64,000 nucleotides of DNA from an uncultured Mycoplasmatota bacterium (GTDB lineage: Bacteria; Bacillota_I; Bacilli_A; RF39; UBA660), in contig CAOKET010000003.1 in assembly GCA_948467605.1 (NCBI GenBank), positions 9,230 to 73,229 on the forward strand, in the 5' to 3' direction. The number at the start of each line of letters is the position of its first letter. The stretch's first letter is position 1. The notes under the pieces are model-generated. The model did no database searches. It was not told the DNA's origin and saw only the letters and a program-made list of their open reading frames with translations. A program made the translations under genes and the position numbers. Shown piece after piece: positions 17,996-50,308 of the stretch.

Positions 17996-18124
17996 CCATA
18001 ATTATAAGATATAATAATGTAACTTTTAAAATGGTAAAAATAATGTTTAAATTTAGTATATTAATATTAACTAAATTTATTGACAAATATTTTGTTTTGG
18101 AGGTATACTAAATTAGTATAAAAC

Positions 18125-18350
18125 ATTGATTGAGAGAAGTAATAATAATACTTACTTAAAGCGAGTTAGATATGGTGAAAGCTAACAGTAAAAGGTTATT
18201 ATGAATAACACTCATGAGTGCTTAAAGAAATAATAGTAGACTAAGCCGGTAAATCCGTTATCTTTATAGAGAGACTATATTTTTATAGTAAATTGGGTGG
18301 TACCGCGAAGACAACATTCGTCCCTTTGTAAGGATAATGTTGTTTTTTTA
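18125..18350 (+). ncRNA. T-box riboswitch leader of the gatCAB-aspS operon (probable Asn AAC specifier)
   Basis: Stem I AGAGA at 18133. The T-box sequence AATTGGGTGGTACCGCG is at 18291-18307. The terminator ACAACATT...AATGTTGT plus T7 is at 18312-18350. A candidate specifier is the AAC-A in gaataacactc. Confidence 0.8.
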
Positions 18351-18369: not shown

Positions 18370-18684
18370 ATGGCAAAATTTACACGTGATATGGTAATAG
18401 ATTATGCAGATAAACTATTAATTGGACTAACAGATGAAGAAGTACAGATGGTATTAGATGAGTTTGAGGTAATTGATAAAAATATTGATTTGATAAATGA
18501 AATACCTAATATAAGTGATGTTACTCCTATGACTCATTGTTTAGATAACTTTGAGTTTGAGTTAAGGGAAGATGTAGTAGAAGAGTCAACTGATATTGAT
18601 GATTTATTGCAAAATTGCGACTCTACTTTAGATAGAGAAGTAAAAGTACCAAAGGTGGTGGAAGATAATGGAATACATGAATAA
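18370..18684 (+). CDS. gatC: Asp-tRNA(Asn)/Glu-tRNA(Gln) amidotransferase subunit C
   Basis: MAKFTRDMVIDYADKLLIGLTDEEVQ...LDNFEFELREDVV is GatC-like. An RBS AAAGGGTGA precedes it. The ORF-track start at 18337 is upstream of the RBS. Confidence 0.8.
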   Translation: MAKFTRDMVIDYADKLLIGLTDEEVQMVLDEFEVIDKNIDLINEIPNISDVTPMTHCLDNFEFELREDVVEESTDIDDLLQNCDSTLDREVKVPKVVEDNGIHE

Positions 18685-48355: not shown

Positions 48356-49036
48356 ATGATTAGTACAAGCAGTTATAATAATTGGAAAAGTGACAGATAT
48401 ATAACTTATTCTATATCTGGTGATTGTGGAAAAAAAGCAGGATATATTGGAAGAAACTTTAAACAATTAGCACCTAAATTATCATTTTGGCAAGTATGGC
48501 ATGATAATATTGGTGTTATTGAAGAAGAAGAAAATAATAGATATTATATAGAACAGTATTATGAACAAGTATTATCTAAACTTGATCCAGAAGATATTTA
48601 TAGAAAGTTAGATGGTTCTATACTTTTATGTTATGAAGATAACACAGAATTTTGCCATAGACATATAGTTGCAGGATGGTTAGAAATTTTATTAAATATA
48701 GAAGTTCCAGAAAAAATAGCATACGGCTATAATGTAGAAACAGTTGAAAGACCAGATTATATTAAAGAATATTTAGAAAGTGCAATGAGAAAAAATCGTA
48801 ATATGAGGGGATTTAACTCATTAAGAGCATTATATCTATTTGAAAAAGGAGAAAAACTAGAAGAAGAGGCAGCAAGACTAAAGGAATCAAATAATGTAGA
48901 TACTTTTACTGATATAGATACAGGTGAAATAATAGTAACAGCAAGAGAATATATGCAAGAAGCATGCTATTTAAGATGTCGTGCTGATGATGCAGAAGAG
49001 GAATATAATAAAAGACGAGTTAAAGTAAAAGAATAA
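48356..49036 (+). CDS. DUF488-like protein with a C-terminal extension
   Basis: ...LLCYEDNTEFCHRHIVAGWLE... matches the conserved DUF488 core. Confidence 0.5.
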   Translation: MISTSSYNNWKSDRYITYSISGDCGKKAGYIGRNFKQLAPKLSFWQVWHDNIGVIEEEENNRYYIEQYYEQVLSKLDPEDIYRKLDGSILLCYEDNTEFCHRHIVAGWLEILLNIEVPEKIAYGYNVETVERPDYIKEYLESAMRKNRNMRGFNSLRALYLFEKGEKLEEEAARLKESNNVDTFTDIDTGEIIVTAREYMQEACYLRCRADDAEEEYNKRRVKVKE

Positions 49037-49053
49037 TATTGTAATAAGGAAAC

Positions 49054-49082
49054 TTGATAAAATAGTACTAATATGATAAAAT
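49054..49082 (+). promoter_or_regulatory. Candidate promoter TTGATA-17-TAAAAT for a ~110-nt + strand sRNA ending at the terminator at 49160-49199
   Basis: The promoter-to-terminator unit overlaps the 3' end of the minus-strand small ORF transcript. Confidence 0.35.
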
Positions 49083-49111
49083 GTATATGTATGAAGGAAA
49101 CTTCATAAAAT

Positions 49112-49151
49112 AAAAAAGGATACATTTGATTGCTAGAATCAGATGTTATCC
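49112..49151 (-). terminator. Rho-independent terminator of the minus-strand small ORF transcript
   Basis: On the minus strand, GGATAACAT...ATGTATCC followed by T6. Confidence 0.45.
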
Positions 49152-49159
49152 CTTATGGA

Positions 49160-49199
49160 TGGCATCTGAAATCAACTAATGTTGAAATCAGATGTTTTT
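49160..49199 (+). terminator. + strand terminator (CATCTGA...TCAGATG then T5) of the DUF488 3'UTR or candidate sRNA
   Basis: A 7-bp stem, an 18-nt loop, then TTTTTATT. Confidence 0.4.
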
Positions 49200-49200
49200 A

Positions 49201-49278
49201 TTATTTAAATAGTAATGTTATTACTACAAAGAATAATAGTAGAATTATAATAAATTGAGAAGCTTCTCTTTTAGTCAT
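49201..49278 (-). CDS. 25-aa hydrophobic peptide MTKREASQFIIILLLFFVVITLLFK (candidate type I toxin or small membrane peptide)
   Basis: A strong RBS AAAGGTGGTGG lies 7 nt upstream of the ATG. A single TM helix. An extended -10 tgcTACAAT promoter sits at about 49352-49360 on the minus strand. It has its own terminator. Confidence 0.35.
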   Translation of the reverse strand: MTKREASQFIIILLLFFVVITLLFK

Positions 49279-49435
49279 AATTACCACCACCTTTCTTTTA
49301 TCATTAGATAAATAGAAAGGGAAAGCATCTGATATATTTCAAATGTATCCAAATAATATTGTAGCAAACATCCGTTCACAAAACAATAGTTTTAAAATAA
49401 TATAATCAAAATTAAAACATTAAGGGGGAAAAAAT

Positions 49436-50308
49436 ATGTATATAGTAGTACAATTTGATATTAAACTAAGAAAAGAAGATAATTTTTCTCCGCTATTAGG
49501 AATTCAATTTATTCCAAATAAAAAAAATAAATTATTTTCTTTATTAATACAAGAGTATGGAATAATATGGTCTGAAAAGTATAAATGTTATATATTACCA
49601 GATATTGCCTATTTTAATCCAAATATATTAAAAGAATATAAAAATATAATAGATTTAACACTAAATAAAATAAAAGATAAACAAATAGATCAAAAAATAA
49701 TAGAAAGAGAACTTAACCAAAGTTATTACACAAAACCACATTTGGCTAACTTTCTATCAGATTATATTAATAATACAAGTGATGAAAATTCTATCTTATT
49801 AGATCCATCTTGTGGAACTGGAAATCTTACAGATAATGTTAATATACCTAAAAAAAATATATATTTAGTTGAACCAGATAAAACATGCATTAATATTTTA
49901 AGAGAAAAAGGATACTCTAATATAATTACATCAACGTTCCAAGAATTTTTAACCAAAGGTAATTATCCAGAGTTTACTCATGTAATAATGAATCCACCAT
50001 TTAAAAATAGACAAGATTTATACTTCTTTAATGAATGTTTTAAATTATTAAAAGATGGTTGTATAATTGCAGCAGTAATATCAGAAAATTCAATTTATGA
50101 AGAATTACAACCATTAGGATATACATTTAATACAGATTTACCAAATAGTAATAAATATAATAACTTTGACAACATATCAGAATTATTACAAGAATTTATA
50201 AATAATATTAGAAATATAACACAGTGTTTTATGGATATAACAGATTCATTTTACAATACAAGTGCAAGAAGTTATTATTTACTAGCAAAAAAATGTAAAA
50301 CAAAATAA
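49436..50308 (+). CDS. Class I SAM-dependent methyltransferase with an NPPF motif (N6-adenine/N2-guanine type); orphan
   Basis: Motif I LLDPSCGTGNLT and motif IV VIMNPPF. RBS AAGGGGGAA. Confidence 0.6.
   Translation: MYIVVQFDIKLRKEDNFSPLLGIQFIPNKKNKLFSLLIQEYGIIWSEKYKCYILPDIAYFNPNILKEYKNIIDLTLNKIKDKQIDQKIIERELNQSYYTKPHLANFLSDYINNTSDENSILLDPSCGTGNLTDNVNIPKKNIYLVEPDKTCINILREKGYSNIITSTFQEFLTKGNYPEFTHVIMNPPFKNRQDLYFFNECFKLLKDGCIIAAVISENSIYEELQPLGYTFNTDLPNSNKYNNFDNISELLQEFINNIRNITQCFMDITDSFYNTSARSYYLLAKKCKTK

Follow-up and report, generated by a model that had tools for sequence, protein, structure and literature searches.

A candidate type I toxin–antitoxin-like module from a previously undescribed family in uncultured, AT-rich gut Bacilli

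Results

The intergenic gap at positions 49037-49435 of a 64,000-nucleotide (nt) stretch of DNA from an uncultured Mycoplasmatota bacterium (assembly GCA_948467605.1, contig CAOKET010000003.1, positions 9,230 to 73,229; the whole stretch is hereafter the window) appears to hold one copy of a previously undescribed family of type I toxin–antitoxin (TA)-like modules carried by uncultured, very AT-rich gut Bacilli. We put the probability of this reading, which rests on sequence comparison, at roughly 0.7. The module fills the 399-nt gap and pairs a minus-strand small open reading frame (sORF) for a short hydrophobic peptide, the putative toxin, with a plus-strand small RNA (sRNA), the putative antitoxin, such that the two predicted transcripts converge and overlap at their 3′ ends. 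An initial annotation of the window had proposed a type I TA-like structure at this place. All of the features it described exist, with several coordinates off by 2-6 nt, and every structural element is backed by comparative data. Homologous small ORFs were searched for in related genomes and were found there, intact, within a family that spans at least 120 metagenome stretches, a recurrence that speaks against a chance arrangement.

The family displays the generic properties of type I TA systems, namely a small peptide encoded by what appears to be a real gene, a structured mRNA, and multiple copies in variable locations. It also has, at the level of sequence, an antisense sRNA with its own promoter and terminator and the capacity to pair with the toxin mRNA. 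Tandem duplication, short transmembrane peptides and missed ORFs are recognised signatures of type I TA systems (PMC2887945), and an antisense RNA (asRNA) overlapping on the 3′ side is their Gram-positive layout (PMC8594479). In our best reading the module would be a new family within a known kind, joining the 3′-overlap layout to a hok-like fold-back of the mRNA; it is filed as a new family because tests of sequence membership fail for txpA/RatA, bsrG/SR4, fst and hok.

The peptide gene

Judged by its relatives, the sORF is genuinely coding: it is conserved and evolves under purifying selection. The Shine-Dalgarno (SD) sequence and 25-codon hydrophobic sORF that had been annotated on the minus strand are both present. 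The window peptide of 25 amino acids (aa), MTKREASQFIIILLLFFVVITLLFK, has a 16-residue hydrophobic core flanked by basic ends. An in-frame GTG at 49290 would yield a product of 29 aa; the ATG start is the one kept in relatives, which also carry a conserved purine-rich SD (GAAAGGAGG) at the equivalent position. A regular-expression scan of all 64 kb for an SD followed by ATG and a short hydrophobic ORF found this sORF and no other.

The window module belongs to a 25-aa subfamily whose other intact members are found at loci L147 (MTKREKTLFIIILLLFFIVITLLYK) and L196 (MTQRENKLYKIIFLLLIIIIVLLYK). Between the sORFs of the window and L147, the proportion of synonymous differences (pS) is 0.38 and that of non-synonymous differences (pN) 0.11. 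Across 48 unique 30-codon ORFs the pooled pN/pS is 0.41 in frame versus 1.03 and 1.12 in the shifted frames, controls that use the same bases as the in-frame value. Entropy at the three codon positions is 0.58, 0.39 and 0.83, the third being the most variable. A strict rule identified an intact SD, ATG and hydrophobic sORF in 84 of the 125 modules with enough upstream sequence, and a relaxed rule added about 12 modules with an sORF. Altogether the family contains 46 distinct peptides of 25-31 aa, in three subfamilies.

Searches of Pfam and NCBIfam with 13 diverse peptides gave no family match at E ≤ 10 apart from noise. Only one cluster (P0001) came back when 1.84 billion representative proteins were searched exhaustively, so the family is essentially unannotated and invisible in protein databases.

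The antisense RNA

The plus-strand sRNA likewise appears to be real, having its own conserved promoter, covarying hairpins and a terminator. The promoter TTGATA-17-TAAAAT that had been annotated was found by a promoter scan and is TG-extended. A corresponding -35/-10 pair lies upstream of the sRNA in 88 of 93 unique family sequences; the spacing is 17 nt in 76 of these 88 and the TG extension is present in 75, with a -10 box that is mostly TATTAT.

The predicted transcript (49089-49206) folds with z = -6.25 into a 5′ hairpin (H1), a central hairpin (H2) and a terminator hairpin (H3). A covariance model of the family (R1) scored 64.4 bits on the plus strand of the window (49088-49203) against 25.7 bits on the opposite strand. 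In an alignment of 42 diverse sRNAs, 16 pairs of H2 and H3 were tested, of which 10 show compensatory changes. Pairing was retained in 96.6% of cells, versus 87.7% in shuffles and 29-46% when the partners were slid, and the covariation score of 0.433 (versus 0.256) was equalled by 0 of 500 shuffles, controls that leave some phylogenetic signal in. The direction of the G·U pairs also favours the plus strand, with 62 read on the sRNA strand against 8 on the mRNA strand. H1 occurs in two compensating versions, ATGAAG/CTTCAT and GCAAG/CTTGC, which are off by one column in the MAFFT alignment, so that its covariation was read by inspection alone. The ACATT of the H2 5′ arm and the inner 3 bp of H1 were fixed by the search pattern described below and were excluded from this evidence.

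An Rfam 15 scan of the window at gathering thresholds gave a T-box as the only match, and permissive Rfam scans of the locus and of loci L011, L023 and L049 gave nothing relevant. The 19-nt direct repeat reported in the sRNA region was confirmed and proved to be longer, at 25 nt with 88% identity (49040-49064 and 49088-49112). Through it, the -35 region of the sRNA promoter carries a second version of the 5′ hairpin and A-rich start of the sRNA. The repeat is not conserved in L147, the closest window-type relative. The sRNA strand also contains a 42-aa ORF with a TTG start (49130-49258), which overlaps the 3′ half of the sRNA and the toxin ORF; no SD was noticed before it and it is probably spurious.

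The peptide mRNA and its overlap with the sRNA

The extended -10 box TGC-TACAAT annotated for the peptide mRNA is present, at 49366-49358 rather than at ~49352-49360. Relatives repeat this promoter as TTGTTT-17-TATAAT (TAnAAT), with transcription predicted to start at a GGAACAUUUGA element. The two annotated terminators, each a hairpin followed by a T-run, are also present on their respective strands with slightly shifted coordinates. Both were read from folds and repeats. A consensus terminator scan found none, because its rule demands at least 3 G-C pairs and the stems here are poor in G+C.

The mRNA (49350 to 49107) has a minimum free energy (MFE) of -78.1 kcal/mol (z = -10.0) in a fold that pairs its 5′ end to its 3′ end. 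The closing helix is formed by element a, at the extreme 5′ end, and its partner a′ in the terminator, which are complementary at 12 of 12 positions in the window. Extended to 13 bp and examined in 36 distinct family sequences, this helix is 94.2% paired, compared with 34-50% in slid controls. Compensatory changes affect six of its 13 pairs, and both partners are altered in 36 cells where 11.4 would be expected. Departures from pairing on the mRNA strand comprise 36 G·U cells and 27 unpaired cells, the latter nearly all in the two end pairs. A contiguous 5′-3′ duplex of at least 11 nt was found in 52 of 67 unique modules (shuffled controls mostly gave 6-8 nt), and MFE folding predicts the 5′-3′ closure for 55 of 57 unique family mRNAs.

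From this closure the helix extends through a ATCAGATG element and then abuts an anti-SD element. Copies of ATCAGATG lie at 49138-49145 and 49187-49194, with an inverted copy in the 5′ untranslated region (UTR) at 49326-49333 and a fourth, partial copy (CATCTGA) at 49163-49169. The inverted copy, element b, pairs with the 3′UTR; a second complementary site is the 5′ arm of the sRNA terminator (49163-49169). Between the three intact window-type modules, element b and the hairpin arm covary, the element reading AUCAGAUG in the window, AUCAGGUG in L147 and AUCAAGUG in L196. The three motifs had been put forward as additional pairing sites; they are present and, judging by the covariation of the 5′UTR copy, appear to serve as such, the dominant pairing being within the mRNA.

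Next to the closing helix, the anti-SD element pairs with the SD region, its equivalent in the 30-aa subfamily being a CCUCC that pairs with GGAGG. The SD has a predicted unpaired probability of 0.17; in a comparison set of 30 ordinary genes from the window the value is 0.44 (p = 3e-9). The SD is at least 70% paired in the MFE folds of 53 of 57 family mRNAs.

The convergent sRNA and mRNA share a 3′ overlap of ~100 nt with perfect complementarity, and each has a separate terminator of its own. The sRNA had been described as antisense to the 3′ end of the mRNA through its 3′ half. The overlap is there, and it takes in nearly the whole sRNA, only the first ~18 nt (the 5′ hairpin) lying outside the 3′UTR complement. 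Since the U-tract of the sRNA ends at ~49206, coverage of the sORF is limited to the stop codon and the last codon. Pairing between the sRNA and the toxin 5′UTR is predicted at ~-30 kcal/mol by RNAduplex, a modest signal (median z = -2), and is possible solely through the self-complementarity of the H2 arms. The dominant conserved pairing is intramolecular, between the 5′ end of the mRNA and its own terminator region.

Table 1. Coordinates of the module and its flanking genes in the window.
Feature	Position	Strand	Description
DUF488-like gene	48356-49036		Upstream flank of the gap; stop at 49036
sRNA promoter	49054-49082	plus	-35 TTGATA 49054-49059, 17-nt spacer, TG-extended -10 TGaTAAAAT 49074-49082
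Antisense sRNA	49089-49206	plus	~115-118 nt; putative antitoxin
sRNA 5′ hairpin H1	49091-49106	plus	ATGAAG-GAAA-CTTCAT
sRNA A-rich linker	49107-49117	plus	
sRNA central hairpin H2	49118-49151	plus	
sRNA terminator hairpin H3	49163-49194	plus	Arms 49163-49176 / 49181-49194; U-tract 49195-49206
Peptide mRNA	49350 to 49107 (inferred ends)	minus	~244 nt; 5′UTR, sORF, structured 3′UTR with its own terminator
mRNA promoter	49358-49386	minus	-35 TTGTTT 49386-49381, 17-nt spacer, TGC-TACAAT 49366-49358
5′ element a	49339-49350	minus	GGAUACAUUUGA; pairs with a′ UCAAAUGUAUCC
Element a′	49118-49129 (plus-strand coordinates)		UCAAAUGUAUCC; in the 3′ arm of the mRNA terminator
5′UTR element b	49326-49333	minus	AUCAGAUG; pairs with 3′UTR CAUCUGAU (plus-strand 49138-49145)
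Anti-SD element	49314-49321	minus	CCCUUUCU; mimics the 16S rRNA 3′ tail, complementary to the SD region
SD region	complement of 49284-49294	minus	AAAGGUGGUGG / AAAGGTGGTGG; best 16S-tail match AGAAAGG
sORF	49278 to 49204, stop 49203-49201	minus	25 codons plus stop; putative membrane toxin MTKREASQFIIILLLFFVVITLLFK
mRNA intrinsic terminator	49153 to 49120	minus	Hairpin GGAUAACAUCUGAUU-CUAGC-AAUCAAAUGUAUCC; U-tract 49119 to 49107
Small-methyltransferase-like gene	49436-50308		Other flank of the gap

Distribution of the family

Searches of the intergenic region and peptide (blastn and tblastn) against 31 related loci gave a short match in L011 and L023 only, and the modules of these two loci surfaced only through a search for SD sequences followed by hydrophobic sORFs. 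Among the 31 species-level loci with a DUF488 homologue, found in metagenome-assembled genomes (MAGs) labelled uncultured Erysipelotrichaceae, Bacilli, Tenericutes, Ca. Faecisoma or Ca. Caccenecus, these two closest relatives alone carry the module in this slot and orientation (DUF488 protein identity 69% in L011 and 73% in L023), leaving 29 of 31 loci without it. In L011 (4700-5130) and L023 (1820-2260) the slot holds a module of the 30-aa type (MKKRTFIIKVLRLIAIILLLLTLLVIAIKI and a variant), versus the 25-aa type in the window. These modules share the promoter geometry of both strands with the window copy, have a terminator directly next to the stop codon and contain the 5′UTR repeat. Compared with the window, the 5′ part of the sRNA is conserved; the toxin and the terminator hairpin differ. 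This difference within one syntenic slot suggests either modular recombination between paralogous modules or very fast divergence. L011 also carries a transfer-messenger RNA gene (RF00023, 114 bits) at 945-1305 on the plus strand, ~3 kb upstream of its DUF488 gene.

A protein search with the 43-aa GTG-extended ORF of L011 identified six called proteins that share the 30-aa core, on contigs that set the module in unrelated neighbourhoods. A first DNA pattern, AATGT-N-TTTTTTATTTTATG, was too loose, all 41 of its 41 viral matches being unrelated, and was rejected. A 29-position pattern was built from the 3′ arm of the mRNA terminator, the U-tract and the H1 complement; it sits on the sRNA and terminator side and recovers only copies that keep that side. 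Its matches numbered at least 120 metagenome stretches, the majority of them from the gut of humans and animals; with the earlier loci added, the modules total 140. In public records the host MAGs appear under Erysipelotrichaceae, Bacilli or Tenericutes. The pattern matched no viral contig, and PLSDB and INPHARED contained no plasmid or phage record matching the module. In a literature search, no paper connected type I TA systems with these taxa, and no text contained the peptide motif.

The modules lie in at least 54 distinct flank contexts. Ten loci are multi-copy, with two or three copies each, and include tandem arrays of 340-385-nt period and diverged paralogues. In about 20 copies the toxin start is lost, or the gene is 5′-truncated or frameshifted, with the sRNA side intact; these include the window-type copies at L142 and L198 and the second copy in L042.

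A tRNA gene starts no more than 250 nt beyond the sRNA promoter in 22 of 121 modules (18%), in every case pointing in the direction of the sRNA, the tRNAs being those for Leu, Met, Thr, Lys, Arg or Gln; on the toxin-promoter side a tRNA was found in only 1 of 113 modules. At some loci the -35 box of the sRNA promoter falls inside an apparent tRNA-operon terminator hairpin. Examples of tRNA-linked modules are L127, L042 (5270-5300) and L049 (170-200); the window copy is not among them.

Genomic setting

The window is chromosomal DNA of ~24% G+C; almost all of its genes lie on the plus strand. The T-box leader detected in it (RF00230, 134 bits) lies at 18117-18328 on the plus strand, upstream of genes starting at 18668. 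An exact 12-nt direct repeat, AATAATATTGTA, occurs at 49032-49043, across the DUF488 stop codon, and at 49352-49363, overlapping the toxin -10 box. It is probably not a target-site duplication, as we estimate that chance alone would produce ~0.2 repeats of this kind in 600 nt at this base composition.

Discussion

Alternative explanations

The most serious alternative, which we nevertheless consider unlikely, is that the peptide is a conserved non-toxic small membrane protein, such as a modulator of a transporter or sensor, controlled by a cis-antisense RNA outside any TA system. Under this explanation the sORF and the sRNA would both be real, and it gains from the fact that many bacterial small transmembrane proteins are regulators, while the toxicity of our peptide is putative. 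A protein of this sort would not be expected to behave as the module does, however. The module is tied to no particular gene neighbourhood, with 54 or more flank contexts; its diverged paralogues can stand in tandem arrays; and its presence varies even among close species, 29 of 31 DUF488 loci being without it. It also persists in many copies as a peptide-less remnant with the sRNA kept, and has a strongly occluded SD. Such variable context, arrays, patchy presence, decay and occlusion point to a selfish or addictive module and away from a housekeeping partner protein.

It is very improbable that the region is a non-coding intergenic repeat or bidirectional terminator cassette, spread for example behind tRNA operons, with the sORF as an AT-rich by-product. 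Hydrophobic pseudo-ORFs are indeed plentiful in AT-rich DNA, the region has two back-to-back terminators, and the 22 of 121 modules just downstream of co-oriented tRNA genes would suit a cassette of this kind. Yet such a cassette would account neither for a pN/pS of 0.41 in the sORF frame, when the other frames give ~1.0-1.1, nor for the retention of the SD, ATG, length (25-31 aa) and stop position across otherwise diverged subfamilies, nor for a dedicated conserved promoter on each strand.

Just as little probability attaches to the idea that the plus-strand RNA is merely the 3′UTR and terminator of the DUF488-like gene at 48356-49036. Read-through from this gene would cover the region, because no terminator intervenes between its stop codon (49036) and the hairpin at 49163-49206. 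Against this, the promoter at 49054-49082 is kept at the same distance from the 5′ hairpin behind unrelated upstream genes, and that hairpin, located at the predicted start of the sRNA, covaries between its ATGAAG/CTTCAT and GCAAG/CTTGC versions. The least probable explanation, a miniature inverted-repeat transposable element whose terminal inverted repeats mimic RNA pairing, would fit the many contexts and copies and the ~210-nt spacing of the repeats, but was ruled out because the repeats are internal with both conserved promoters outside them and the 12-nt repeat at 49032/49352 is at chance level, no conserved target-site duplication having been seen, and the departures from complementarity are mainly G·U on the mRNA strand, which points to selection at the RNA level.

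Several observations weigh against the type I TA reading itself. The window SD is imperfect (GGUGG) and is separated from the ATG by ~11 nt. Only one module copy was found in the window by blastn, tblastn and covariance model R1, and the metagenome contigs of this species that span the gap wholly or in part (8 of 8) are identical over the covered part, so that there is no within-species variation to read. The pN/pS of 0.41 is pulled slightly downward by the intact-ORF filter. The excess of toxin-less copies is partly a matter of ascertainment, because the search pattern lies on the sRNA side. The opposite loss also occurs at L047 (3001-3159) and L050 (597-761), where the stop codon and the sRNA side have been replaced; these keep the toxin 5′UTR and the 30-aa core, with peptides extended at the C-terminus to 52-54 aa, and may be decayed or neo-functionalised copies. 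Lastly, the predicted SD accessibility is not changed by blocking or removing the 3′UTR (0.17, 0.16 and 0.17 unpaired). On these thermodynamic predictions an SD switch operated by sRNA binding or 3′ trimming was ruled out, and any sRNA action beyond promoting decay is unsupported because predicted accessibility is the same without the 3′UTR.

Comparison with known systems

The txpA/RatA- or bsrG/SR4-type assignment made in the initial annotation stands for the convergent 3′-overlap layout and fails for homology, given the results from Pfam, NCBIfam and Rfam. With txpA/RatA, bsrG/SR4, bsrE/SR5 and yonT/SR6 of Bacillus subtilis the module shares a toxin mRNA and sRNA that converge with a ~100-nt 3′ overlap, a peptide that is small and hydrophobic, partial sequestration of the SD within the toxin mRNA and, by analogy, the expected mode of action, decay triggered by the duplex. 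The Pfam, NCBIfam and Rfam scans gave no peptide or sRNA similarity to TxpA, BsrG, BsrE or YonT. The module peptide of 25-31 aa is shorter than the 38-59 aa of this group, and the module mRNA is closed by a long 5′-3′ helix, unlike those of the group. In further contrast to these systems, the module is hosted by uncultured gut Bacilli and its copies lie outside prophages. The convergent 3′-overlap layout is that of the Gram-positive txpA/RatA-type families, and in the txpA/RatA and bsrG/SR4 families the asRNA also overlaps the toxin ORF (PMC8594479); it covers the 3′ part of the ORF there, whereas the overlap in the module stops at the stop codon.

In other respects the module is closer to fst/RNAII (par of pAD1) and SprA1/SprA1as, which have a toxin of ~30 aa, an overlap confined to the 3′UTR and terminator region, repeat elements shared by the sRNA and the toxin 5′UTR, and intramolecular occlusion of the SD. 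No match to Fst_toxin, Ldr or RNAII was found in Pfam, NCBIfam or Rfam scans. The module has two separate terminators where fst/RNAII has one shared bidirectional terminator. Unlike that of fst, its 5′UTR repeat has the same sense as H2 of the sRNA and pairs primarily with the 3′UTR of its own mRNA rather than with the sRNA. The module peptide ends in K or KK without an acidic or charged tail, whereas Fst has a charged C-terminal tail.

The locking of the extreme 5′ end of the toxin mRNA to its 3′ end, with an occluded SD, recalls hok/Sok (the tac-fbi pairing of hok) and aapA1/IsoA1. This tac-fbi-like closure is an analogy with hok, not a homology; Pfam and NCBIfam searches gave no similarity to Hok_Gef. 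Those systems are Gram-negative, with the antisense RNA over the 5′ leader or the ORF, whereas the module sRNA is on the 3′ side. Activation by 3′ processing is unsupported for the module, whose predicted SD occlusion is independent of the 3′ end.

Proposed mechanism

A mechanism consistent with these features can be proposed for the type I TA reading. A weak-to-moderate promoter would drive the mRNA, and a strong TG-extended promoter the convergent sRNA. The first ~30 nt of the mRNA would pair with its own terminator region and close the molecule, and the anti-SD element beside the closing helix would occlude the SD, giving a full-length mRNA that is stable yet poorly translated. We suggest that abundant sRNA would form a long duplex with the 3′UTR, opening the 5′-3′ closure and exposing the mRNA to double-strand-specific (RNase III-type) and exonucleolytic decay. 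Duplex-triggered decay is the mode of action of RatA, SR4 and SR5 in Bacillus subtilis. If the sRNA were to drop, the putative peptide toxin would accumulate and might damage the membrane.

More speculatively, the toxin mRNA may itself contain an imitation of the antitoxin, such that the intramolecular helix competes with the sRNA acting in trans. We regard this as doubtful. The first ~30 nt of the mRNA amount to a loop-less copy of H2 placed on the exact 3′UTR target site of the sRNA. A self-antitoxin helix of this kind would protect both ends of the mRNA and hold the anti-SD in place, and once the sRNA displaced it, the 5′ end would become open to RNase J-type decay. To our knowledge, with only the T1TAdb paper (PMC8594479) and Fozo et al. 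2010 (PMC2887945) consulted, such regulatory logic has not previously been described for type I TA systems. With 18% of copies directly behind co-oriented tRNA genes, it is also a possibility that the supply of sRNA is coupled to read-through from tRNA operons.

Conclusions

Type I TA systems are hard to find, as gene callers miss both partners, and the known families come almost all from cultured Proteobacteria, Bacillus, Staphylococcus, Enterococcus, Clostridioides and Helicobacter. If the reading proposed here is true, the module would represent a new type I TA family that is abundant in uncultured, genome-reduced gut Bacilli of humans and animals. Its near-invisibility in protein databases shows the extent of unannotated small-gene and sRNA content in gut MAGs. 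The comparative data define the promoters, transcript ends, peptide and RNA structures well enough for experiments to be designed directly, and the 25-31-aa peptides are candidate membrane-active agents. The combination of a Gram-positive 3′ overlap with a hok-like closure, together with the bias towards tRNA sites, raises testable questions about how such modules would be regulated and how they may spread.

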